From positions 3,780,001-3,812,000 of the forward strand of contig NC_009925.1 in assembly GCF_000018105.1 (NCBI RefSeq): DNA of 32,000 bases. Direction: 5' to 3'. The translations under genes and the position numbers were made by a program. This document shows, one piece after another, positions 9,103 through 21,300 of this stretch. A model generated the notes under the pieces. The model was given only the letters and a program-made list of their open reading frames with translations. It had not been told where the DNA came from and did no database searches. The DNA is from Acaryochloris marina MBIC11017 (GTDB lineage: Bacteria > Cyanobacteriota > Cyanobacteriia > Thermosynechococcales > Thermosynechococcaceae). The first letter of the stretch is position 1. Every line of letters begins with the position of its first letter.

Positions 9103-9613
9103 AGCAGGTCCTCTCTTCTCAGGTAAAAAAGTTCAGGGCCGAGACCTCAAGAAAGAGTGTGGAGATCGTGAATGCATAAAAATCGTAAAATTAGTAGATA
9201 AGTTAGTAACGATTTTAGGAAAAAATGAGTTATATACTCTCTTCTATCTTGTGCTTATATGAGGTCTGCAATTAATAGCTTAAAATCGCTATAGTTAAAT
9301 ATCTATATTAGTTCTAGCTTTTTGTCTGTAAATCATGATTTTATTAAAAATTTCTATGAGTTAGTAGAAGAAGGTCGAAATATTCTCTTTATAAAAATAT
9401 TTATTGTGTTGGATTTTTGGCATATAAGGAATCGATTTGGGCTGGGCTAAAGAATGAATAACTCAGTCTTTGCAGTAGCCGTTAAATATCTGCAGAATGA
9501 GTCAAGAAAGACAACGGCAGCGTCAGGGCTCACCCTTGTGAGTTGATCAAGCAAACCGTTTAGGGTACTTGCCCTGAGAGAAGTGATGGAGAAACAGGCA
9601 TTTGGCAATCGGT

Positions 9614-11227
9614 ATGGGAATGCAGCGCAGACAGTTTTTACGCTTTGGGGGCACAGTCTTGCTGACCCTCGTGGCTTCTCCCAGGTCCTTCGCGAAATCC
9701 GTTGATGACATTCGCAAAATCGCCCGACAGATCACCGTCAAAATCCTGACTCAAGGGCCGTCTGGGTCGGGGATCTTGATTCAGAAAAAGGGGCCTATCT
9801 ATACGGTGCTGACAGCCGCCCATGTGATCAAAAATTCAAATCGTGGGGAAGAAGCCTATGCCATGACGAGTGATGGTGAGAATCACTTGCTGGATACCCA
9901 AGCCATGAAGACTGGCTCTAACTTAGATCTTGCGATCGCAACCTTCTACAGCAATAAAACCTATGGCGTGACTGATGTCGGTCAATTTAAAGCCCTCGAT
10001 ATTTTGGATGAAATCTATGTGGGAGGGTATCCCTTAGCGGATCAAGGTATATCCGTCTCGACGATCACGCTGACTCGGGGAGAGGTCGCTTCGATTGGCC
10101 CCTTTGAGGATGGCTATGGGTTTTCCTATACTGCGGTAACCAAAGCGGGGATGAGTGGTGGTCCCATCCTCAATCAGGCGGGCCAGCTTATCGGCGTTCA
10201 TGGTCGAGCAGCAGGACAGCGATTGAAACAGTTTCGGCTCAAGGACGGCCTGAATTTGGGGATTCCCATCGACACCGCCATCGAGGTATTTGGGTTGAAG
10301 ACCCTCGCCCCAACGGTGGCGCAACCTGACGAACCGGAGCCTCAATCGGCTGAGACGGATCCGCCAGAGGAAGAGCCTTCCAGTCCTTCACCAGATTCCC
10401 CTTTGGTGAGCTTCACCTTTGAAGTGCTGGGGGTCAATGACAAAGGCCAGGTGCGTAAACGGATGCAACAGTCGGCCCAATCTTATCGCCAACCCCTGGT
10501 GGGTGGAGTGGCCTTGGAGATGGTGGCTATTCCCGGGGGACAGTTCACGATGGGCTCGCCAGTAACCGAAACCCATCGTGAGAAAAACGAAGATCCGAAA
10601 CATGTTGTGGATGTCCCGGCGTTTTTGATGGGGAAGTATCCCATTACCCAAGCCCAGTGGCAGGCCATTATGGGGGACAATCCCTCTAAGTTTCAGGGGG
10701 CCAATCATCCCGTCGATCAAGTTAGCTGGTTTTTAGCGGAAGAGTTTTGCCAGAAACTGTCTTTGGCGACGGGGCAAGACTATCGGCTGCCCAGTGAAGC
10801 CGAATGGGAATATGCCGCCCGAGCGGGTACCGATACCCCGTTTCACTTCGGTCAGACCATCACCACCGATCTGGCCAATTATGATGGCAATTACGCCTAT
10901 GACAAAGGCCCCAAGGGCACCTTCAGAAAAAAGACGGTTCCGGTGGACCAGTTGGCCGGGAATGCCTTTGGGTTGTTCAATATGCATGGTCAGGTTTGGG
11001 AATGGTGTCTAGACCATTGGCATGACACCTATGACGGTGCGCCTAGGGATGGTACGGCCTGGGTTGAGCAGGGTGACCCAAAAATGCGCCGAGTGCGGCG
11101 AGGCGGATCCTGGTATGACAGTCCCCATGCCTGCCGATCTGCATTTCGCTACCGATCCTATCCCTATGCCTATACGGGGTCTTTTGGTTTGCGCGTGGTT
11201 CTGCCTGCCCTAAATCAAACGGTGTAG
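9614..11227 (+). CDS. Tat-signal trypsin-like serine protease fused to a C-terminal FGE-like (SUMF1/EgtB/PvdO-fold) domain, paralog 1
   Basis: Signal peptide MGMQRRQFLRFGGTVLLTLVASPRSFA. Chymotrypsin-fold triad: TAAHV (His codon 9821-9823), DLAIA (Asp 9926-9928), GMSGGP (Ser 10154-10156). A Pro/Glu-rich linker follows. The FGE-like domain has LEMVAIPGGQFTMGS, RLPSEAEWEYAARAG and RRGGSW. The track start at 9602 is TTG; I chose ATG 9614 by homology to paralog 2. Confidence 0.9.
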   Translation: MGMQRRQFLRFGGTVLLTLVASPRSFAKSVDDIRKIARQITVKILTQGPSGSGILIQKKGPIYTVLTAAHVIKNSNRGEEAYAMTSDGENHLLDTQAMKTGSNLDLAIATFYSNKTYGVTDVGQFKALDILDEIYVGGYPLADQGISVSTITLTRGEVASIGPFEDGYGFSYTAVTKAGMSGGPILNQAGQLIGVHGRAAGQRLKQFRLKDGLNLGIPIDTAIEVFGLKTLAPTVAQPDEPEPQSAETDPPEEEPSSPSPDSPLVSFTFEVLGVNDKGQVRKRMQQSAQSYRQPLVGGVALEMVAIPGGQFTMGSPVTETHREKNEDPKHVVDVPAFLMGKYPITQAQWQAIMGDNPSKFQGANHPVDQVSWFLAEEFCQKLSLATGQDYRLPSEAEWEYAARAGTDTPFHFGQTITTDLANYDGNYAYDKGPKGTFRKKTVPVDQLAGNAFGLFNMHGQVWEWCLDHWHDTYDGAPRDGTAWVEQGDPKMRRVRRGGSWYDSPHACRSAFRYRSYPYAYTGSFGLRVVLPALNQTV

Positions 11228-11347
11228 AGGACTGGCTTTGGGGAGAGAATGCGCTAATATCCGTATCACCCTTCTAATCCGAGACATTCCCAAATAGAGC
11301 GGATACAGTAGGAATAAGGGTTTTGCAGCGTATTGATATAGGTTGGA

Positions 11348-12967
11348 ATGGGCATCAAGCGTCGACAGTTTTTGTGGTTCGGGGGGACTGCTGTAATCAG
11401 CTTGGCCTCGTCCCAATGGTCTTTCGCCAAATCAGTTCGGGATATTCGCCAAATTGCCCGTCACATTACCGTTCGCATTATGACCCAAGGCCCTTCTGGC
11501 TCCGGGGTGTTAATCAAGCGAAATGACAATATCTACACCGTACTGACGGCGGCCCATGTGATCAAAAACTCCAACCGGGGTGAGGAAGCCTATGTGGAAA
11601 CCTATGACGGTGAAACCCATCTCCTCAATACCCAAATGATGCAGGTGGATGTCAAAGCGGATATTGCGATCGCAACCTTCACTTCCAGCAACAACTATCG
11701 CACCACCAACATTGGCAAGTTTAAAGACCTGGGCATTTTGGATGACATTTATGTCGGTGGTTATCCCCTAGCCGATCAGGCCATTTCCGTCTCCACCATG
11801 ACCCTAACTCGGGGCGAAGTGGCCTCCATTGGTGAATTTGAGGATGGCTATGGGTTTTCCTACACGGCCGTCACCAAGGCAGGCATGAGCGGTGGCCCAG
11901 TGTTAGATCGCGAAGGTCGCCTAATTGGGATTCATGGTCGGGCGGCGGGACAGCGCTTACAAGACGTGCGGATTAAAGATGGTTTGAATTTAGGGATTCC
12001 GATCTCAACTGCGATCGCAACCTTTGGTCTCGACAATCAGTACCGGCCCCTGACCGCTGAGCAACCGGATACATCTGAACCCCAGACCTCTGAACCCTCT
12101 GAACCGGAGTCCACCCAAGCGCCACCGGAGGAGACTCTGCCCGGCCTCTCTCGGTTTGCCTTTGAAGTGGTGGCAGTGAATGCCCAAGGTCAAATCCAAA
12201 CCCGCAGCCGTCAGTCTGCCCAATATTATCGCCAGCAGCTAAAACAAGATCAGACCCTGGATATGGTCTATATCCCTGGGGGAAAATTTAGTATGGGCTC
12301 TCCGGCAACGGAAGCCAATCGTCAAGGCAGTGAAGGTCCCCAACACCTGGTCACAGTTCCCACCTTTTTTATTGGCAAATATCCGATTACCCAAGCCCAA
12401 TGGCAGGCCGTGATGGGGGAGAATCCGGCCAAGTTTCAGGGGGCAGATCGTCCCGTCGAGCAAGTGAGCTGGCAGGCCGCGACGGAGTTTTGCCAAAAAC
12501 TATCGGAACTCACGGGCCAGGACTATCGTTTACCCAGCGAAGCAGAATGGGAATATGCTGCTCGTGCCGGGACTAGCGCACCCTTCTGTGTGGGGGCTAC
12601 CCTGACCACGGACTTAGCCAACTACGACGGCAACTATACCTATGGTCGCGGTCCGCGGGGCACCTTTCGCAAGGCCACAACTCCCGTTGGTCAATTTTCA
12701 CCCAACCCCTTTGGTCTTTATGACATGCATGGCCAGGTCTGGGAATGGTGTCAAGATCATTGGCATGACACCTACAAAGGGGCACCTGCGGATGGATCGG
12801 CCTGGGTGAAGGATACGGATGTGCGATCGCACCGAGTCAGACGAGGAGGATCTTGGTACGACGGTCCCCATGCCTGCCGGTCCGCCTTTCGCTATCGGTC
12901 ATTACCGAGTAACTATCAAAACTCCTATGGCCTGAGAGTGGTCTGCCAAGAGTTTAAGGATATTTAG
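11348..12967 (+). CDS. Tat-signal trypsin-like serine protease fused to a C-terminal FGE-like domain, paralog 2
   Basis: Signal peptide MGIKRRQFLWFGGTAVISLASSQWSFA. The protein is collinear with paralog 1 over its full length, sharing TAAHV, DIAIA, GMSGGP, a Pro/Glu linker, LDMVYIPGGKFSMGS, RLPSEAEWEYAARAG and RRGGSW. Confidence 0.9.
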   Translation: MGIKRRQFLWFGGTAVISLASSQWSFAKSVRDIRQIARHITVRIMTQGPSGSGVLIKRNDNIYTVLTAAHVIKNSNRGEEAYVETYDGETHLLNTQMMQVDVKADIAIATFTSSNNYRTTNIGKFKDLGILDDIYVGGYPLADQAISVSTMTLTRGEVASIGEFEDGYGFSYTAVTKAGMSGGPVLDREGRLIGIHGRAAGQRLQDVRIKDGLNLGIPISTAIATFGLDNQYRPLTAEQPDTSEPQTSEPSEPESTQAPPEETLPGLSRFAFEVVAVNAQGQIQTRSRQSAQYYRQQLKQDQTLDMVYIPGGKFSMGSPATEANRQGSEGPQHLVTVPTFFIGKYPITQAQWQAVMGENPAKFQGADRPVEQVSWQAATEFCQKLSELTGQDYRLPSEAEWEYAARAGTSAPFCVGATLTTDLANYDGNYTYGRGPRGTFRKATTPVGQFSPNPFGLYDMHGQVWEWCQDHWHDTYKGAPADGSAWVKDTDVRSHRVRRGGSWYDGPHACRSAFRYRSLPSNYQNSYGLRVVCQEFKDI

Positions 12968-12989
12968 CAGCCCAGATGGCCCCAAAGAA

Positions 12990-15900
12990 CTAACCCACTA
13001 ACTCCGGGGTCTTCTGGTCAATCAATCCTGCTAGGGTATCGAGTAACTCCTGCTCGTTAAAGGGCTTGGAGAAATAAGCCGACGCACCCAAATTCATGGC
13101 CACCTTGCGGTGTTTTTCGTGACTGCGAGAGGTCAGCATCACAATCGGCAAGTCTTCAAACTGAAGTTGGCCTTTGACTTCTTCCAGTACGCCATAGCCA
13201 TCCAAGCGAGGCATTTCAATATCACAAACCACTGCCTGTACAGCTAAGCCGCTTTCCAGTTTGTCCACGGCTTCTTGGCCATCCTTGGCCTGTTCAACCT
13301 GATAGCCCGCTTTTTCTAGGGTCAGGGCTAAGAAACGACGGACATTAACAGAGTCATCCACCACCAGGATGGTATTGTCTGAGCTGACGGAGGGCAGAGA
13401 TTCGATGGGAGGCGTGATGTCGGTTTGTTGTCGTTCCAGGGACCATTTGAGAATGGACAAGGGGTCGAGGATGGGGACCACGCGACCGTCCCCTAAGACA
13501 GTAGAACTTACAAATCCGGGGGGCATGGGTAAGGGGCTGGCGATGTCGCGAATGGTTACTTCCTGTTCACCCCAGAACCGTTCAATTTCTAGGCCACCGA
13601 TCTGGTCATCCTCCCCAACTACGAGAATAGTGGGTTTGTTAATAACCGGAGTCCCGGACATTTCGGAGAATCGGCGGGTTTGATTAAAGGCCCAATGCTG
13701 AGCCAAGTTGATGATGGGAATGGAGCGATCTTGCCAGGTCAACGTGTGAGACGCTTCGATCCTTTGAATTTGGTCTGATTGCAATTGCAAAAGTTCGCAA
13801 ATGCTTTCACTCGGCACCGCAAAGATGAATCCTGAATGCTCGAGCAGCATGACGCGCAAAATTGAGAGGGTATAGGGAACTGAAATGGTGAAGGTGGTGC
13901 CTACACTCTGTTCAGTATGGACCTGAATTTCACCTCGGATGTCGCGAAGATTGTTGCGCACAACATCCATGCCGACGCCGCGTCCAGAGATTTCAGTCAC
14001 TTGGTCCGCTGTACTAAAGCCCGGTTCAAAAATACAGTCTAATAAATCGGCTTCAGAGAGTTGAGAGACTTCCCACTCCGGAATGCCCATGGCCTGCAAA
14101 CGATCACGGACCTTATCAAGGCGAATCCCTGCACCATCATCGCTCAGGGTAATGACTGTTTGTGCCCCTCGATTACGGGCTTGAATCGTAATCGTGCCTT
14201 TTGGCGCTTTGCCAATGGAAGTCCGGCGTTCCTGGCTGCCAATCCCATGATCAAAGGCATTACGAAGTAGATGATTAAGGGCATCTCCTAGGGGGTCCAG
14301 TACTGCTCGGTCAATCAGGGTGGCGTCCCCTTCCATCAACAGGTTGACCGGCTTATTAAACTGAACGCTCAAGTCTCGAATCATCCGGGGAAACCGTTTG
14401 ACGATTTCTCGGAAAGGCACCATCTGGGTGCGGGTGACATTCGTCTGCAATGAGCGGGTGGTTTGGTTAATATCGCGGACCGCCTGACCCATATCCTGTA
14501 GGGTCAGTTCAATATCGGAACCCACCTCTTGTAACTGAACAATCGTTTCGATTTGGTCTTGGGCAATCAGGTGCAAGTCCGTATACTGGTCCATTTCTAG
14601 GGCATCAAATTGCCCGGATCTGGGCTCAGCCAGTTGTTCGGGTTGAGCGGGAGCGGCTTCTTCGGCAGGGACGATGCCTTCCATAGAGGCGCGGTCGTAC
14701 CATTGCTGAAGTTGTGTATTGGAGGCTTCTAACTGACGAATCCGCTGTCGAATCAGTTGGGTGTAGGCTTGCAACTGCTCAAAACGCAAATTGACCGTAT
14801 TCCGATCTAGAATCAACTTCCCAAACAGGGTATTAAATTGCTCCAGTTGTTCCACGGGAACCCGCACCGTTTTACCGCTGAGGGGCTTCACGGGAGCAGC
14901 AGAAGGCTGGGCTGCCGTGGTTTGTTCCAAAATTTGAGCCGCACTCTCCAGGGTTAAGGGGAGATCAGCAACTTCTTCTTTGATTGTTGAGTCTGCCGTA
15001 GATTCAACCAGATCGGAAGTCACTTCAAAGGCCTGCTGTAGATCCGCTAGCTCCACCGAATCCTGCAGATTGGCGAGGGCATCTGCGTTTAACAAGTCTT
15101 CTGGCGCAAAGTCATCAGTAGCGATTTCGGCAGGAAATTCCAGCGCTGGCTCGGGCAACTCGACTGATAAGGCATCGGCTAAGTTGGCGATTGCTGGATC
15201 ATCTAGAGCAATGTTCTCGAAATTGACCGCTTCTGGTGCTTCAGGACCAGGTAGATTCATGGCTAAATCATCCGCTAGATCAGCGACAGCCGAATCCTCA
15301 AGGGCCACATTCTCCAGATTGACCGCTTCTGGTGCTTCAGGACTAGGCAGATCCGTGGCTAAAGCATCCGCTAGATCAGCGACAGCCGGATCATCAAGGG
15401 TAATCTCTTCTAGCGCTTCGGCGTTAGGCAGATCGGTGGCTAGGGCATCTGCTAAGTGGGCAACAGCCGGATCATTAAAATCAAGGTCTTCTATGGGGTC
15501 CGCTTCTATCGATTCAGGATTAGGTAGATCCGTTCCTAAAGCACCTGCGAGATCGGCGACAGGGGCATCCTCTAGGTTAATCTCTCCTGGCAACTCAATG
15601 GTACCAAAGTCAGCTTGCAGAGCTGATAGGTCGACGGAGCCAAGGGCAGTTTCAAAGTCGGCTTCGGGGCTGGAGGCCATCGTTGGCGTAAAGTCCAGCA
15701 GTTCATGGGGGAGCTTCTCGAAACTGCGGCGCAGGACCAGCGCATGGGACCGTCGCCAGGTTTTGAGGGCGGCCATTGAGAGTTCAGGAATCTGCTCCGG
15801 CACGACCTGGGTCGCCAGTTCCTGGATTGATTGGCAGAGCTGAATAAAAGAGTCTAAATTGGCCATATGGCCGAAGGCCACCAATTCTTCGGCGGTCATC

Positions 15901-16457
15901 GCGAGTTCAGCCGCTAGTTGAGGGGCTGGCAAGGTGCCAAAATAGCCTTCAATGCGATCGAGAACAGCTTCCACCCCATCCTCAAACATAAGTAACGCTG
16001 GATCGATTTCCTCTTCGCCACCACTGAGAAGTGCATTTTCGTCTGCATCTGTTACCTCGCCCAAATGGGTCTGCAGTTGGTCGAAGACGGGGGTGATATG
16101 GGCAGCCATCCAGTCAGCATCAATGTCAGCCCCTTGCTGATAGCGATCGCCTACTTGTCGTAAGCAGTCTAAGCCCTGCAACAGGAGGGTTTCTACCTCT
16201 GTTGCGATGATTTTGGAGGCATGGTGTACCCGCAGAATCTTGAAAAAATCTTCCAGACGGTGGGCCACTTTACTCAGATCCATCAGCCCCATCATCGCCG
16301 CCCCCCCTTTGACAGAGTGGGAGGCTCTGAGCGCTTCATCGAGTTGTTCGGGGTCTGCTGCGTTGGTGGCTAGACCCAGCAAAACGCGTTCAATCTTTTC
16401 GTAGCAGTCTTCCGCTTCTTCGAGAAATTTGAACTGGACTTGTTGTTCTTTATCCAT
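12990..16457 (-). CDS. Hybrid CheA-like histidine kinase with a C-terminal receiver (PilL/HmpE/PixL-type)
   Basis: N-terminal Hpt domain (SHSVKGGAAMMG, His47), an acidic repeat linker, and HATPase boxes (NHLLRNAFDHGI, DDGAGI, GRGVGMDVV). A CheW-like P5 domain follows, then the receiver (ILVVDDSVNVRR...VVCDIEMPRLDG...YFSKPF). Confidence 0.93.
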   Translation of the reverse strand: MDKEQQVQFKFLEEAEDCYEKIERVLLGLATNAADPEQLDEALRASHSVKGGAAMMGLMDLSKVAHRLEDFFKILRVHHASKIIATEVETLLLQGLDCLRQVGDRYQQGADIDADWMAAHITPVFDQLQTHLGEVTDADENALLSGGEEEIDPALLMFEDGVEAVLDRIEGYFGTLPAPQLAAELAMTAEELVAFGHMANLDSFIQLCQSIQELATQVVPEQIPELSMAALKTWRRSHALVLRRSFEKLPHELLDFTPTMASSPEADFETALGSVDLSALQADFGTIELPGEINLEDAPVADLAGALGTDLPNPESIEADPIEDLDFNDPAVAHLADALATDLPNAEALEEITLDDPAVADLADALATDLPSPEAPEAVNLENVALEDSAVADLADDLAMNLPGPEAPEAVNFENIALDDPAIANLADALSVELPEPALEFPAEIATDDFAPEDLLNADALANLQDSVELADLQQAFEVTSDLVESTADSTIKEEVADLPLTLESAAQILEQTTAAQPSAAPVKPLSGKTVRVPVEQLEQFNTLFGKLILDRNTVNLRFEQLQAYTQLIRQRIRQLEASNTQLQQWYDRASMEGIVPAEEAAPAQPEQLAEPRSGQFDALEMDQYTDLHLIAQDQIETIVQLQEVGSDIELTLQDMGQAVRDINQTTRSLQTNVTRTQMVPFREIVKRFPRMIRDLSVQFNKPVNLLMEGDATLIDRAVLDPLGDALNHLLRNAFDHGIGSQERRTSIGKAPKGTITIQARNRGAQTVITLSDDGAGIRLDKVRDRLQAMGIPEWEVSQLSEADLLDCIFEPGFSTADQVTEISGRGVGMDVVRNNLRDIRGEIQVHTEQSVGTTFTISVPYTLSILRVMLLEHSGFIFAVPSESICELLQLQSDQIQRIEASHTLTWQDRSIPIINLAQHWAFNQTRRFSEMSGTPVINKPTILVVGEDDQIGGLEIERFWGEQEVTIRDIASPLPMPPGFVSSTVLGDGRVVPILDPLSILKWSLERQQTDITPPIESLPSVSSDNTILVVDDSVNVRRFLALTLEKAGYQVEQAKDGQEAVDKLESGLAVQAVVCDIEMPRLDGYGVLEEVKGQLQFEDLPIVMLTSRSHEKHRKVAMNLGASAYFSKPFNEQELLDTLAGLIDQKTPELVG
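15123..15581 (-). repeat. In-frame tandem repeats (period about 96 bp, 27-32 aa) inside the CheA linker
   Basis: There are five copies of the core D-[PS]-A-[VI]-A-x-L-A-x-x-L-x-x-x-L-P. The 24-mer TTGACCGCTTCTGGTGCTTCAGGA occurs at both 15223-15246 and 15319-15342, exactly 96 bp apart. Confidence 0.85.
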
Positions 16458-16546
16458 AGTGCTGAGGCGATGATAGGTCGCTAATGTCGATGAGGGGCAT
16501 CCTGTATCTCAATCCAGAGGGCTCGAAAGGCAAGCGCTCGAAGGTT

Positions 16547-18955
16547 TTAGCTTGCTTCTTCGACCTTAAACTGGGCCACGGCTGCTTCCATCTGCTCGGC
16601 CACGGCTGCTGTTTCCTGCATGGATTCGGCCACCTGGGTGGAGGATTCCGCTCGTTGTTCAGATTGGGCTGCCATTTGCTGCATAAGGGTCGTCACCACT
16701 TTGGAGGTTTCGGTTTGGGATACGGTGGCGTCAGAAATCGAACGCATCAGGTCGTTAATTTCTTGCGAACGGTTGAGAACAACCGCCAGCTTGTCTTTGG
16801 TCGTTTCCACTAGGCGGGTACTATCGACCACCTGGTTGGTGCCGATTTCCATGGCTTCGGTTACTTCTTTGGTCTCGGCTTGAATACCAGCCACAATTTG
16901 GGCAATTTCCTTGGTCGCAGCAGCGGACTGTTCCGCCAGAGCACCCACCTGTTCCGCAACCACGGTGAAACCTTGCCCCTGCTCACCGGCCCGGCTGGCC
17001 TCTACACTGGCGTTAATGGCTAGGAGATTCGTTTTCAGCGCGATTTCTTCAATCAAAGACACCACCTGGGAAATCTTTTGGGAGGATTCACCCAAACGCT
17101 TAATTTTCTTAGCCGTTTCACCCACCGTATTTCGCAGACTGAGAATACTATCCACCGTTTGATCCATGGCATCACTTCCTTCTTGAACCGTGGTGTAGGC
17201 TTGGTCAGAAATCAGCGCGGCTTTACCAGCGTTGCTGGCTACATCCTCAATGGAGGTGGACATTTGCTCAATGGAGTCCAGCGTGGAACGGGTTTGCTCG
17301 GTTTCTTGGATAGCTTGTTCAGCAAGGGTCTGCATTTCCCCTTTGCTCTCGTTCAGAGACGAACTCACCTTGACCGAAGAGTCTTTTACTTGGGCCGCAA
17401 TCTCATTGAGGTTATCGATAATGGCGTTGAACAAGTCCGCAACGGTACTCATTTCCATCGAGTTTAAGCTGGCGCGGACGGTTAAGTCGCCATCCACCGC
17501 TTCTCCCACTTCATCGAGGAGCTGGTAAATTTCCATTTCCAGTTTGTCGCGGGATTCTCTTTGCTCTTCGGCGGTTTGTTCCGTTTTGTCGAGTAGAGTT
17601 TTCACCTCAGACACCATGGTGTTAAAGGTGCGAGCTAGGGCTCGGGTTTCGCGGGTGCCGTCCACTTCCGCTTCGACATCCAAGTTACCGCTAGCGGCTT
17701 CGTCAGCAGTATCCGTCAGTTTGGCGAGGGGATTGGAAACGGTCCCGGCTAGCCAGTAAATCACGGCGGTAATAAAACCTGCCAGTAATAGACCCATACC
17801 CCCGAACAGAATCAACTGCTGTTGCGCCAAAGCGGCTTCTTCTGCCGTTTCCACGGAGGCAATCGCCACCAGTTTTGTCCCTGGAATAATGGACACGTTA
17901 AAGAATCGATCCTTGTAGGTAAAGGAGGCAATCACTAACTTGAATTCTCCTGCTACCTGTTCTTTGGTCTTCAGGTCAGTAATGCCGGGAATATTTCGAA
18001 TCTGAGCCTTTGTGGCATTCAAATCACCTGCTTCTGCTTCCAGATAATCTTCGATGAGTTTGGCAGCTGCTACCACATCTGCCCCACCTGTCACCTCTTG
18101 ATTTTGGAGATCACTTCCTTTAGCCGTAATGGTATCTACTACTGCGTTGGTCTCTAGTTTGGGATTCACAATTTGGACAATTTCTGACTCGGTTAGGTTG
18201 GGAGACACCAGGGTACTGATGGCTTCGTCTAACGCTTTCGTTGGTATTGCAACTTTCGTCACCCCAATGAAATTACCCGCATCATCTTTAACTTGTTTGG
18301 AAAGGGCAATGATGTTTTGATTGGCTGATTCATCGAACTCCGGTTCTTCGATAAATTGCCCTTTCTCTTTGGCCATTTGCCACCAGCGTTCATCATTCTG
18401 GACAAAGTCGGAGGTGGGATTGCTATAGCCCACGTTAAATCCATATTTGTCCGTGACGAACACCTCAGCCAACTGACCATTTTTGACGACGCGTTGTAGG
18501 TACTCATTCAATTTAGCGTTGGGTTTTAGCAGTTTGGTACTCGCAAACTGCTGTTCCACTACTTCAATAGGCTTCTGGGGCAAGCCTTGGGCCTCAGCTT
18601 GTTGGGCGCCAGCTTGGACCGCTTCTAGTAATAATGGGTCACTATCAATAATGTCTGGAAATTTCAGGGCGTCTTTTAAGAAAATGGCGCTGGCTTCACT
18701 AGACAGCAAGCTCACCTCTTCCAACTGCAACAGGGCTTTTTCCTTGAGCTGGGCTTCTGTTTGCACGTAACCGATCACACTGGCAATGGCCACCGGGGCC
18801 AAGGCTACGGGCAAAACGGTGGTTAATAGTTTTTGGCGCAGGGTGGCAGCCGGTTTGGTGTAGGGGGTGGCTGGGTCAACGTTGAGATCTTGGGCCGCCA
18901 TGTTGCCGTTGCTGGCCGTGGCGTCTGCTAGGGTCATGTCCTGTTGGGTCGTCAT
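16547..18955 (-). CDS. Methyl-accepting chemotaxis protein with a large extracytoplasmic domain and no GAF/phytochrome domain (PilJ/HmpD-like)
   Basis: TM1 is LLTTVLPVALAPVAIASVIGYV. A roughly 315-aa ectodomain follows, then TM2 (LILFGGMGLLLAGFITAVIYWLAG), a HAMP domain, and an MCP signalling domain (ALKTNLLAINASVEASRAGEQGQGFTVVAEQV). Confidence 0.95.
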   Translation of the reverse strand: MTTQQDMTLADATASNGNMAAQDLNVDPATPYTKPAATLRQKLLTTVLPVALAPVAIASVIGYVQTEAQLKEKALLQLEEVSLLSSEASAIFLKDALKFPDIIDSDPLLLEAVQAGAQQAEAQGLPQKPIEVVEQQFASTKLLKPNAKLNEYLQRVVKNGQLAEVFVTDKYGFNVGYSNPTSDFVQNDERWWQMAKEKGQFIEEPEFDESANQNIIALSKQVKDDAGNFIGVTKVAIPTKALDEAISTLVSPNLTESEIVQIVNPKLETNAVVDTITAKGSDLQNQEVTGGADVVAAAKLIEDYLEAEAGDLNATKAQIRNIPGITDLKTKEQVAGEFKLVIASFTYKDRFFNVSIIPGTKLVAIASVETAEEAALAQQQLILFGGMGLLLAGFITAVIYWLAGTVSNPLAKLTDTADEAASGNLDVEAEVDGTRETRALARTFNTMVSEVKTLLDKTEQTAEEQRESRDKLEMEIYQLLDEVGEAVDGDLTVRASLNSMEMSTVADLFNAIIDNLNEIAAQVKDSSVKVSSSLNESKGEMQTLAEQAIQETEQTRSTLDSIEQMSTSIEDVASNAGKAALISDQAYTTVQEGSDAMDQTVDSILSLRNTVGETAKKIKRLGESSQKISQVVSLIEEIALKTNLLAINASVEASRAGEQGQGFTVVAEQVGALAEQSAAATKEIAQIVAGIQAETKEVTEAMEIGTNQVVDSTRLVETTKDKLAVVLNRSQEINDLMRSISDATVSQTETSKVVTTLMQQMAAQSEQRAESSTQVAESMQETAAVAEQMEAAVAQFKVEEAS

Positions 18956-19027
18956 GGTCTTGTGGTGAAAGTAACTAAGGAGTAAAGAAAGCTGCCAACT
19001 GGACGTTGACGGGTATGCTGTTGCAGG

Positions 19028-19591
19028 TTAGGTCGGATATAAAGCCGGTGCTTTGGCCAGGAATGGCGGATAGAAAAGATACAGGGTTTGCTCGTCCTGT
19101 TGGCAAGTGGCTGTAACGTAGGGACTTAGGTTTGCCGGACAGGCAGCAATTTCGGTTTGCAGTTGCTCTTCTTGTAAGCGGGTGACCCCTTGAATTTGGG
19201 GAACGGCCAGCCCCAAAAGCGCCTCTCCATTTCCCGAGCGTTGATAGTCAGAAGGAGGTACCCGGACAACAATCACGCGGTATCGGCGCTGGCTACCGAT
19301 GATATCGGGGTATCCCAACAACTGGGGCAGATTGACCACACAGAAGACCTGATCTCGGGAATTCATTAACCCCAGCACCGATCGGGCCATATTAGGGATG
19401 AGGGTAATCTGCTCAGCCTCTACAATTAAGGACTCTTGGACATGCTCCATTGAGAGCAAAGCACCGATACCCTCTGCCACCATAAACCGCAGATAGGGTT
19501 GTCCGGTGAGCTGGGTGGACTGAAATAACTGGGGTAGCAGCTCTTGCAGTCGTGATAGTGAAGTTGTAGAGGCAGTCGGTTGTTGGGTCAT
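19028..19591 (-). CDS. CheW-like coupling protein
   Basis: Single CheW domain (YLRFMVAEGIGALLSMEHVQESL...VLGLMNSRDQVFCVVNLPQLLG). Its start directly abuts the stop of the CheY-like gene. Confidence 0.9.
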   Translation of the reverse strand: MTQQPTASTTSLSRLQELLPQLFQSTQLTGQPYLRFMVAEGIGALLSMEHVQESLIVEAEQITLIPNMARSVLGLMNSRDQVFCVVNLPQLLGYPDIIGSQRRYRVIVVRVPPSDYQRSGNGEALLGLAVPQIQGVTRLQEEQLQTEIAACPANLSPYVTATCQQDEQTLYLFYPPFLAKAPALYPT

Positions 19592-19957
19592 TTATTTCAT
19601 TGCCGCTCTCAGGGCACTCACGAGTTCTTGCTTGGTGCAGGGTTTTGTGACATAGGCTTCTACCCCTTGCTTGGCAGCCCACATGCGATCGACATCTCGA
19701 TTCTTAGCGGTACAGGCCACCACGGGAATATCGGCGGTGTCGGGGTTCTTGCGTAGCTTCCGGGCTAGGTCTAACCCGCCCATTTCCGGCATCATCCAAT
19801 CGGTGACAATGGCGTCGGGCTTGTTCTGACTAACTTTTTCTAGTGCCTCTGTGCCATTGGTGGCCGTGACGATGGTGTAGCCTTCTTCGGTCAGGTATTG
19901 ACAGAGTAAGTCCAGTTCGGATTGGAGGTCATCGACGACTAAGATTTTGCTGCTCAT
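19592..19957 (-). CDS. Single-domain CheY-like response regulator
   Basis: MSSKILVVDDLQSELD...AIVTDWMMPEMGG...VVACTAK...YVTKPC. I use ATG 19957, which has AAGGA upstream. The track ORF extends to a GTG at 20065 and adds an implausible His/Ser-rich 36 aa. Confidence 0.9.
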   Translation of the reverse strand: MSSKILVVDDLQSELDLLCQYLTEEGYTIVTATNGTEALEKVSQNKPDAIVTDWMMPEMGGLDLARKLRKNPDTADIPVVACTAKNRDVDRMWAAKQGVEAYVTKPCTKQELVSALRAAMK

Positions 19958-20073
19958 GGTGTGTCCTTGGGTGGCTAAGTTATGAAACGTAAGTAGAGTT
20001 GAGGAACTGGAATGAGAGTGGTGTGGGGTAGACGGGCTACCCAATGTGAGTCTATTGGAACTCACCTATACTC

Positions 20074-21300
20074 CTAAGCTGGATTGAGTTGAGTCAGGTA
20101 TTTCTCCACCACATCTGTGAGACCTTGTTGGGTAAAGGGTTTGGTGAAGTAATCGGTGGCACCGGCCAATTTGGCACGGGCTTTATCAATCAGCCCCGTA
20201 TTTCCCGTCACCATGATGATCGGGGTTTCGTCAAAGACGGCACTACTTCTGAGCAGACTGCACAAACGGTAACCGTTTATTTTGGGCATTGTGATATCGA
20301 GCAAAATCAGATCGGGCTTGATCCGAAAGATGACTGAAGAGGCTTGAATCGGGTCATCGACCGTTGTAACTTCATATCGAGTATTCCCTAAAAACCGCTC
20401 AATCTCACTCAAAATCGTTGGACTATCGTCAATGCAGACAATCTTAAAGACGCGATTAGCGGCCTGGGCTGTCTGAGCAGCTTGGGTTACGGTTGGCGTG
20501 TTAGGAACACCTGGAACCCGAGGTAGTTGGTCAAAAGGCGGCTGTGGATTGCGTAAAAAAATGACCTGCTGTTCTACATAGGGACCAAAGAGCTGAGCAA
20601 TATGCAGCTCGTCTTGTTTGAGCAGGACTGACAGCTGGCGAATACTGAATCCTCGACTCATCAACTGGGCGAGTTTCGTCAGTGCTTCTGGGGATAGTTT
20701 GCCCCCCTGAACGGGTTTGCTGATATGGCGAAAATCTAATAGGTAAGGACGCTGATAAGGTGACCAAATTTCTTTGCTACAACTTTGCCAACCCTTCATG
20801 CGTTGCTTGAGGAAGCGGACCGTATCGACTACGTCCACTAAAGGCGTTTGCCCCAATACCGTCGTCACCCATTCCGGCGAAGGCGTACCATTTTCCCAAA
20901 CTGCTCTGGCTTGACGCAGCCATAAAAAGGTTTCTAATGCATCTTGAGTAATATCTTCAATCAGCTGTCTGGATTGGATCTCATCTAGCATATGGCGTTC
21001 CTGCAGCCAGAGCATTGATCGCTGAATGAGTCCTTGGGCCTTGGTGACGGTTGTGACCCCAGCCTCCGTTGCGGGTGGCATTTCTTTAAGGACGTTATAT
21101 GCCTGGTCTAACCCTTGTCGGCATAGGAAATAGCTGAGTTGGGCCAGGGTTTGAATGGAGCAGTCTACATACTGTAGGTCTCCCTCATTTAAATAGATGT
21201 GCCAAACGGCTTTACCATTGCTCGCTTTGAGTACGCCTGTCGCACTAGAGCTTGATAACTCAGTTAACAGCTGATACGGATCAAACTTAGAGGGTTCCAT
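20074..21300 (-). CDS. PatA-subfamily response regulator (N-terminal PATAN domain plus C-terminal receiver)
   Basis: A non-receiver N-terminal domain of about 280 aa is followed by the receiver: KIVCIDDSPTIL...LILLDITMPKINGY...IIMVTGN...YFTKPF. It occupies the first position of a PatA-CheY-CheW-MCP-CheA operon, as in cyanobacterial Tax/Pil/Hmp loci. Confidence 0.9.
   Translation of the reverse strand: MEPSKFDPYQLLTELSSSSATGVLKASNGKAVWHIYLNEGDLQYVDCSIQTLAQLSYFLCRQGLDQAYNVLKEMPPATEAGVTTVTKAQGLIQRSMLWLQERHMLDEIQSRQLIEDITQDALETFLWLRQARAVWENGTPSPEWVTTVLGQTPLVDVVDTVRFLKQRMKGWQSCSKEIWSPYQRPYLLDFRHISKPVQGGKLSPEALTKLAQLMSRGFSIRQLSVLLKQDELHIAQLFGPYVEQQVIFLRNPQPPFDQLPRVPGVPNTPTVTQAAQTAQAANRVFKIVCIDDSPTILSEIERFLGNTRYEVTTVDDPIQASSVIFRIKPDLILLDITMPKINGYRLCSLLRSSAVFDETPIIMVTGNTGLIDKARAKLAGATDYFTKPFTQQGLTDVVEKYLTQLNPA

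Follow-up and report, generated by a model that had tools for sequence, protein, structure and literature searches.

The stretch of DNA analyzed here (the window) comprises 32,000 nucleotides of Acaryochloris marina MBIC11017, contig NC_009925.1, positions 3,780,001 to 3,812,000 of the forward strand. It holds two tandem, co-directional open reading frames (ORFs), 67% identical over their whole length, each of which encodes a trypsin-fold serine protease domain followed by a C-terminal domain with the fold of the formylglycine-generating enzymes (FGEs). The C-terminal domain is most likely a ligand-binding module of a kind already described, and not an FGE. Part of it is homologous to the variable region of a diversity-generating retroelement (DGR). 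The features of the two genes are as follows, in window coordinates.

9602..11227, plus strand: gene of paralog 1 (P0001), 541 aa when counted from TTG 9602
9614..9694, plus strand: predicted twin-arginine-type signal peptide of paralog 1, with RR-x-F-L, a hydrophobic stretch and S-F-A ahead of the predicted cleavage site
9737..10297, plus strand: trypsin-fold serine protease domain of paralog 1 (Pfam Trypsin_2), from the Pfam match and the triad
9821-9823, 9926-9928 and 10154-10156, plus strand: His74, Asp109 and Ser185, the triad of paralog 1
10301..10405, plus strand: linker rich in Pro, Glu and Ser, predicted to be disordered (predicted local distance difference test score, pLDDT, <50 at residues 234-263) and of the highest column entropy
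10406..10495, plus strand: beta extension ahead of the FGE-fold core, predicted strands 269-278 and 284-298
10508..11203, plus strand: FGE-subclass C-type-lectin-fold domain of paralog 1, from the Pfam match and an AlphaFold2 (AF2) model
11096..11203, plus strand: segment of paralog 1 homologous to a DGR variable region, residues 499-534, holding Asp506 and Cys511
11348..12967, plus strand: gene of paralog 2 (P0002), 539 aa, with the same four-part architecture as paralog 1
11555-11557, 11660-11662 and 11888-11890, plus strand: His70, Asp105 and Ser181, the triad of paralog 2
12839..12946, plus strand: segment of paralog 2 homologous to a DGR variable region, holding Asp505 and Cys510

In paralog 1, the ATG at 9614 falls exactly opposite the start codon (ATG) of paralog 2 in the alignment and is probably where translation begins; the deposited 541-aa protein would then start four codons too early. 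Both proteins are predicted to be exported by the twin-arginine translocation (Tat) route, and the RR motif of the signal is conserved in orthologues of the window genes. In other cyanobacteria, proteins of this architecture have signals of the Sec or lipoprotein type rather than the twin-arginine type, so export is apparently general for the architecture. The protease domains match Trypsin_2 with E values of 5e-20 and 8e-23, and the putative catalytic triad is intact in both proteins; among 37 proteins of the same architecture, Asp109 and Ser185 occur without exception, and His74 in at least 90%. The Trypsin_2 domain, the His/Asp/Ser triad and the predicted export are shared with the HtrA/DegP proteases, and there are weak matches to HhoA, HtrA and DegP models and structures. 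Unlike HtrA/DegP, the window proteins have no PDZ family match in Pfam and carry the FGE-fold domain in the C-terminal position. All HtrA-type NCBIfam equivalogs scored far below their cut-offs.

The C-terminal halves of the two proteins match the Pfam family FGE-sulfatase (PF03781) with E values of 1e-51 and 4e-56. The AF2 model of residues 290-541 (252 residues) has a mean pLDDT of 95.3 and a predicted template modeling score (pTM) of 0.93. In VIA-align comparisons the model was closest to PvdO of Pseudomonas aeruginosa (5hha; Z 34.0, root mean square deviation 1.8 A over 234 residues) and to TvpA (2y3c; Z 32.8, 1.8 A over 226 residues), followed by the FGEs of human, Thermomonospora curvata and Streptomyces coelicolor (Z 26-28, 2.4-2.8 A) and by PorK (Z 27.4); the ranking by Foldseek agrees. 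The nearest structures are therefore members of the fold that lack the Cys pair of the FGEs. PvdO is also the best sequence match (E 1e-31); it has neither cysteine and, in contrast to the window domains, is not fused to a protease. TvpA (Treponema denticola variable protein 1) shares the FGE fold, yet is reported to lack formylglycine-generating activity and is regarded as a ligand binder (Wu et al. 2018, PMC5758913). The related cyanobacterial ‘FGS’ domains are always C-terminal, share an all-beta extension with TvpA and are often diversified by DGRs; they act without enzymatic targeting and have been read as binders (Kaur et al. 2020, PMC7159879). The window domains resemble both in their compact FGE-subclass lectin fold, which lacks the long FGE insertion, and in their N-terminal beta extension. 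As in TvpA, the second cysteine is kept, the first is absent and the C-terminal scaffold is that of a DGR template in the same genome; unlike TvpA, the window domains are fused to a predicted exported trypsin-fold protease.

The initial annotation had held that these domains lack the first catalytic cysteine and are thus probably not FGEs, on the basis of two 19-residue strings that are exact translations of 11099-11155 and 12842-12898. Pairwise HMMER alignments were made with human FGE (2aft, a C336S mutant) and with T. curvata FGE (6s07 and 5nxl), with the chain index of 2aft converted to human numbering by an offset of 85, derived in this analysis. A profile alignment built from 60 homologues gave the same Cys register. 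In paralog 1, Asp506 (11117-11119) stands opposite the first catalytic cysteine, which we take to be C336 in human and C269 in T. curvata FGE, and Cys511 (11132-11134) stands opposite the second, human C341; the equivalents in paralog 2 are Asp505 (12860-12862) and Cys510 (12875-12877). Both copies have Asp in place of the first cysteine and keep the second, as had been claimed, and neither the human nor the T. curvata alignment placed a conserved Cys pair in the active site. Chance is not at issue, since the positions are read directly from the sequence.

Further residues that matter for FGE activity are also changed. Ser333 of human FGE aligns with Ser503 and is kept, His337 is replaced by Ser507 and Tyr340 by Ala510. 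According to the profile alignment, two insertions of the FGEs are absent from the window domains and from TvpA: one of 3 residues directly after the second cysteine, and one of about 50 residues nearer the N-terminus of the domain. Arg343 of human FGE lies inside the missing tripeptide. Ser333, His337, Tyr340 and both cysteines affect FGE activity, and mutation of either catalytic cysteine has a significant effect (Holder et al. 2015, PMC4505483). Arg343 is strictly conserved according to a study of patients with multiple sulfatase deficiency (PMC4375846), and Cu(I) is held in FGE only when both cysteines are present (bioRxiv 10.1101/2021.05.21.445229).

A check of the copper and calcium ligands had been proposed along with the initial annotation. 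At the level of sequence alignment, the copper-binding Cys pair is lost and calcium site 2 is apparently kept. The positions of human Glu130 and Asp273, which we take to be ligands of calcium site 1, are occupied by Pro347 and Lys in the window domain. Asn259, also of calcium site 1 (PMC4375846), aligns with the invariant Asn426. The Asn293/Glu300 region of calcium site 2, a site to which the carbonyl of Ala298 contributes a ligand (PMC4375846), appears to be represented by Asn461 and Glu467 in the alignment.

Loss of the Cys pair extends to the whole genome of 10 replicons, in which PF03781 matches 22 places and the pair was found in none of them. A single cysteine in the same scaffold is present in 19 of the 22; one match is an EgtB-like gene and one is a frame of 88 codons, many of them for Asn, beside a reverse transcriptase. 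The FGE-fold domain is always C-terminal in this genome, the domains ahead of it being Trypsin_2 (three genes), protein kinases (four genes), an orthocaspase and VMAP-C; its occurrence behind kinases, orthocaspase, VMAP-C and proteases alike is the behavior of a modular sensor. A third trypsin-FGE paralog with a Tat signal is encoded at G000:C1:5536589-5537266 (C1:5.54 Mb; L002), and a short Tat-signal protein made up of the FGE-fold domain only, without the conserved cysteine, is encoded at G000:C1:1176055-1176651 (L020). The set of predicted exported FGE-fold proteins is thus larger than the window pair. In the representative library, the proteins P0123-P0130 are giants of up to 4448 aa with 6-11 tandem FGE-fold copies.

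No sulfatase gene is encoded in the window, in agreement with the initial annotation, and a search of the whole genome for the sulfatase family PF00884 gave one marginal partial match only (26.4 bits). The ORF concerned (L023:664-1842, G000:C4; 392 aa, with a twin-arginine-type N-terminus) contains no C/S-x-P-x-R motif, and its product is probably another member of the alkaline phosphatase superfamily, not a formylglycine-dependent sulfatase. The pattern is the same across 8 genomes of the genus, where 3-22 FGE-fold matches per genome compare with 0-1 marginal sulfatase matches. An organism with 22 FGE-fold domains therefore has no credible sulfatase to mature. The wider family is large, with 178,091 representative clusters at E <=0.001. 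With the Cys pair and further activity residues lost and no credible sulfatase in the genome, the inference that these domains are not FGEs is correct, yet it restates the accepted view for the subfamily. Non-catalytic FGE-fold binding domains are well documented in TvpA, PorK, Tsi3 and the cyanobacterial ‘FGS’ domains, and the FGE folds of PorK (PMC12421860) and Tsi3 (bioRxiv 10.1101/2021.05.21.445229) were judged non-enzymatic, their cysteines being missing. What is specific here is that the domain is fused to a trypsin-fold protease with predicted Tat-type export, that the two genes form a conserved tandem pair, and that the lost cysteine maps to a DGR-variable position.

This mapping was obtained from a DGR in the same genome. 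Its template repeat lies at G000:C1:317886-318006 and the cognate variable region at C1:315194-315314, in an orthocaspase-FGE gene; the locus including this target spans G000:C1:314596-318006 (L010, L022). Template and variable region differ at 17 of 121 bases, and all 17 differences fall on template adenines, which is the signature of a DGR. The template is collinear codon by codon with the window motif, the position of Asp506 being AAC and that of Cys511 the scaffold codon TGC. Column statistics were computed from 750 related domains of 264 proteins, which are not independent of one another; the best 150 matches of the representative-library search, mostly multi-domain repeat proteins, were used for motif statistics only. 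Column entropy over the 750 domains came to 3.81 bits for the 16 template-adenine positions, compared with 1.47 bits for the remaining 20 (Mann-Whitney p = 2e-7, indicative only given the non-independent domains). Position 506 was occupied by Asp in 148, Ser in 124 and Asn in 83 domains, position 511 by Cys in 424, and cysteine at both positions was found in only 3. The retained cysteine (511 in paralog 1, 510 in paralog 2) is thus assigned by its codon to the conserved scaffold. Hypervariability at 506 next to a scaffold residue at 511 indicates that, in the branch of DGR targets, the former copper-ligand position is now a freely variable ligand-contact position.

The two window genes themselves are not diversified. 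No template for them was returned when both variable-region-like segments were searched by BLASTN against the genome, nor when the template repeat was searched against everything. Motif residues 496-519 are nearly invariant among orthologues of 65-91% overall identity, and only residues 520-528 of the motif region differ between orthogroups. A CCCTTT-periodic element follows directly after the stop of the genuine DGR target (L010:2226-2260) and is absent after both window genes (11228-11260 and 12968-12989). The reverse transcriptase frame at the DGR locus is only 295 aa long, and the reverse transcriptase of the MBIC11017 DGR was reported to be disrupted by an insertion element (Schillinger et al. 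2012, PMC3521204). The window genes therefore differ from the TvpA and ‘FGS’ DGR targets in lacking a template repeat, the recipient element after the stop, and hypervariability. The orthocaspase-FGE gene (L010, G000:C1:314.6-315.3 kb) resembles them in its C-terminal domain and in having a protease-type N-terminal domain; it differs in being a real DGR recipient, in having no signal peptide in its N-terminus and in having a caspase-fold, not a trypsin-fold, protease domain. Judged by translated tails, the CCCTTT-periodic element also occurs after several plasmid FGE-fold genes. Two template-like copies of the FGE-fold C-terminus, rich in Asn codons, were noted elsewhere: one at G000:C1:715-813 (minus strand), beside a reverse transcriptase fragment with an in-frame TGA, and one at G000:C3:188182-188297 (minus strand), on a plasmid, among several short FGE-fold genes.

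Taken together, the two genes probably encode exported trypsin-fold proteases with a non-catalytic FGE-fold domain of fixed ligand specificity, which targets or regulates the protease. A binding or otherwise divergent role, as the initial annotation had suggested, gains support from the homology to a DGR variable region, from the hypervariable first-Cys position and from the proximity of the fold to PvdO and TvpA. The flexible linker would tether the binding module to an active, exported serine protease, and the module would either bring substrate to the protease or detect a ligand by which the protease is gated, through tethering or allostery. The residue at the first-Cys position (Asp506/505) would sit at a position that is hypervariable and contacts ligand in the sister domains. 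PDZ domains play a comparable directing or gating role in the HtrA proteases. Because the surface is fixed and not diversified, each domain should recognize a constant ligand. The two tandem copies and the third paralog at C1:5.54 Mb differ at variable-region-like positions, and they probably differ in target. Read in this way, the genes encode predicted exported proteases with a recognition module in the PDZ position, which offers a testable handle on the substrates of the proteases. The general principle has already been published; the gain lies in annotation and in a hypothesis rather than in a concept.

Several observations weigh against this assignment. The full-length AF2 model (pTM 0.57) has a disordered linker and gives the orientation of the protease relative to the FGE-fold domain without confidence, so that the coupling in particular is an inference. 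NCBIfam hidden Markov models (HMMs) returned nothing relevant for a Tat signal on the N-terminal 49 residues, and the signal accordingly rests on the motif and its conservation. The Cys register was taken from sequence and profile alignments. The NCBIfam name for PvdO, dihydropyoverdine dehydrogenase, would allow for an unrelated enzymatic role, and the conserved cysteine together with an orthogroup-specific acidic residue and His leaves room for a residual metal site.

It is conceivable, although rather unlikely, that the fixed surfaces are frozen products of ancestral DGR mutagenesis, a specificity domain selected by a retroelement having been captured, exported and fixed. If so, the pair would be periplasmic or extracellular proteases with two tailor-made, antibody-like target specificities, and the tandem copies would be two frozen variants, with most of their differences at residues 520-528. 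In a weaker variant, the orthogroup-specific acidic residue, His and Cys at 506, 509 and 511 may make up a residual metal site, and export by the Tat route would be explained by it.

Among the competing explanations, the best placed is that the domain is another enzyme of the FGE superfamily, such as a PvdO-like oxidoreductase or a metal-dependent activity on a periplasmic small molecule or peptide. This agrees with PvdO being the best match in sequence and structure, with the NCBI name of homologues (‘SUMF1/EgtB/PvdO family nonheme iron enzyme’), with conservation of Cys511 in at least 90% of relatives, and with the apparent retention of the Asn/Glu pair of calcium site 2. However, the PvdO equivalog of NCBIfam was reached with only 142.6 and 163.1 bits against a cut-off of 500, PvdO itself lacks the conserved cysteine, and no catalysis by PvdO in vitro had been shown as of 2021 (bioRxiv 10.1101/2021.05.21.445229). 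EgtB, OvoA and SenA need a DinB domain, which Pfam does not find in the window proteins, and their equivalogs scored 35-69 bits against cut-offs of 360-420. Hypervariability of the residues that surround the former active site, seen across the subfamily, is a poor fit to a conserved catalytic site. A different enzymatic role or a residual metal site is improbable.

Slightly less probable still is that the domain serves as a docking or oligomerization hub in the manner of PorK/GldK, assembling a protease complex and not recognizing substrate or ligand. The FGE fold of PorK is a docking hub without catalytic cysteines (PMC12421860), PorK aligns with the model at Z 27.4, as given above, and GldK is the second-best NCBIfam match. 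PorK/GldK of the type IX secretion system and Tsi3, an immunity protein of the type VI secretion system, have in common with the window domains an FGE-like fold without the catalytic Cys pair, which they use for protein-protein contacts and not for catalysis, but they occur with other partners and in other contexts, and none is fused to a protease. The GldK equivalog was matched with 95-105 bits against a cut-off of 350, the large insertion domains of PorK are absent (252 residues in the model versus about 445 in PorK), and the window encodes no partners like those of the type IX secretion system. The variable-region-like surface differs between orthogroups, as is expected of specificity and not of a structural contact.

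That DGR diversification of the two genes is ongoing, with the flagged stretch as an active variable region, is largely refuted and has very little probability left. The stretch is collinear with a DGR template of the same genome, and protease-FGE architectures are among the listed DGR targets (Wu et al. 2018, PMC5758913); nevertheless, no template-like copy in the genome matches either variable region at the DNA level, and the near-invariance of the motif among orthologues, the missing element after the stop and the reportedly disrupted reverse transcriptase described above all oppose it. Third-base C at template-AAC positions (5-6 of 10, against a background of 27-32%) is not decisive. Least credible of all, and practically negligible, is a true FGE with an Asp/Cys or single-Cys active site: the window domains share with the aerobic FGEs the fold, Ser503 and the second cysteine, but Cu(I) requires both cysteines, the equivalents of His337, Tyr340 and Arg343 are lost, and neither the genome nor the genus offers a credible sulfatase substrate.

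The database names attached to such genes are misleading under the preferred reading as exported proteases with a fixed-specificity binding domain; they include ‘formylglycine-generating enzyme required for sulfatase activity’, ‘nonheme iron enzyme’ and ‘Ser/Thr kinase pkn1’. The orthologue in Acaryochloris thomasi (P0011) is named ‘Serine/threonine-protein kinase pkn1’, yet it contains protease and FGE-fold domains only; the name was apparently transferred via the FGE-fold domain, which is common to kinase fusions.

Membership of the pair in a defense system was considered and rejected, PADLOC having given generic protease-domain matches only. Downstream of the pair, a PatA-CheY-CheW-MCP-CheA cluster occupies 12990-21300 on the minus strand. 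An operon link to this chemotaxis-like cluster was likewise rejected, since the cluster runs convergently on the other strand, and the pair is not claimed to be functionally connected with it. Paralog 2 and the hybrid CheA gene of the cluster end toward each other, with only 22 bases between their stops (window 12967-12990).

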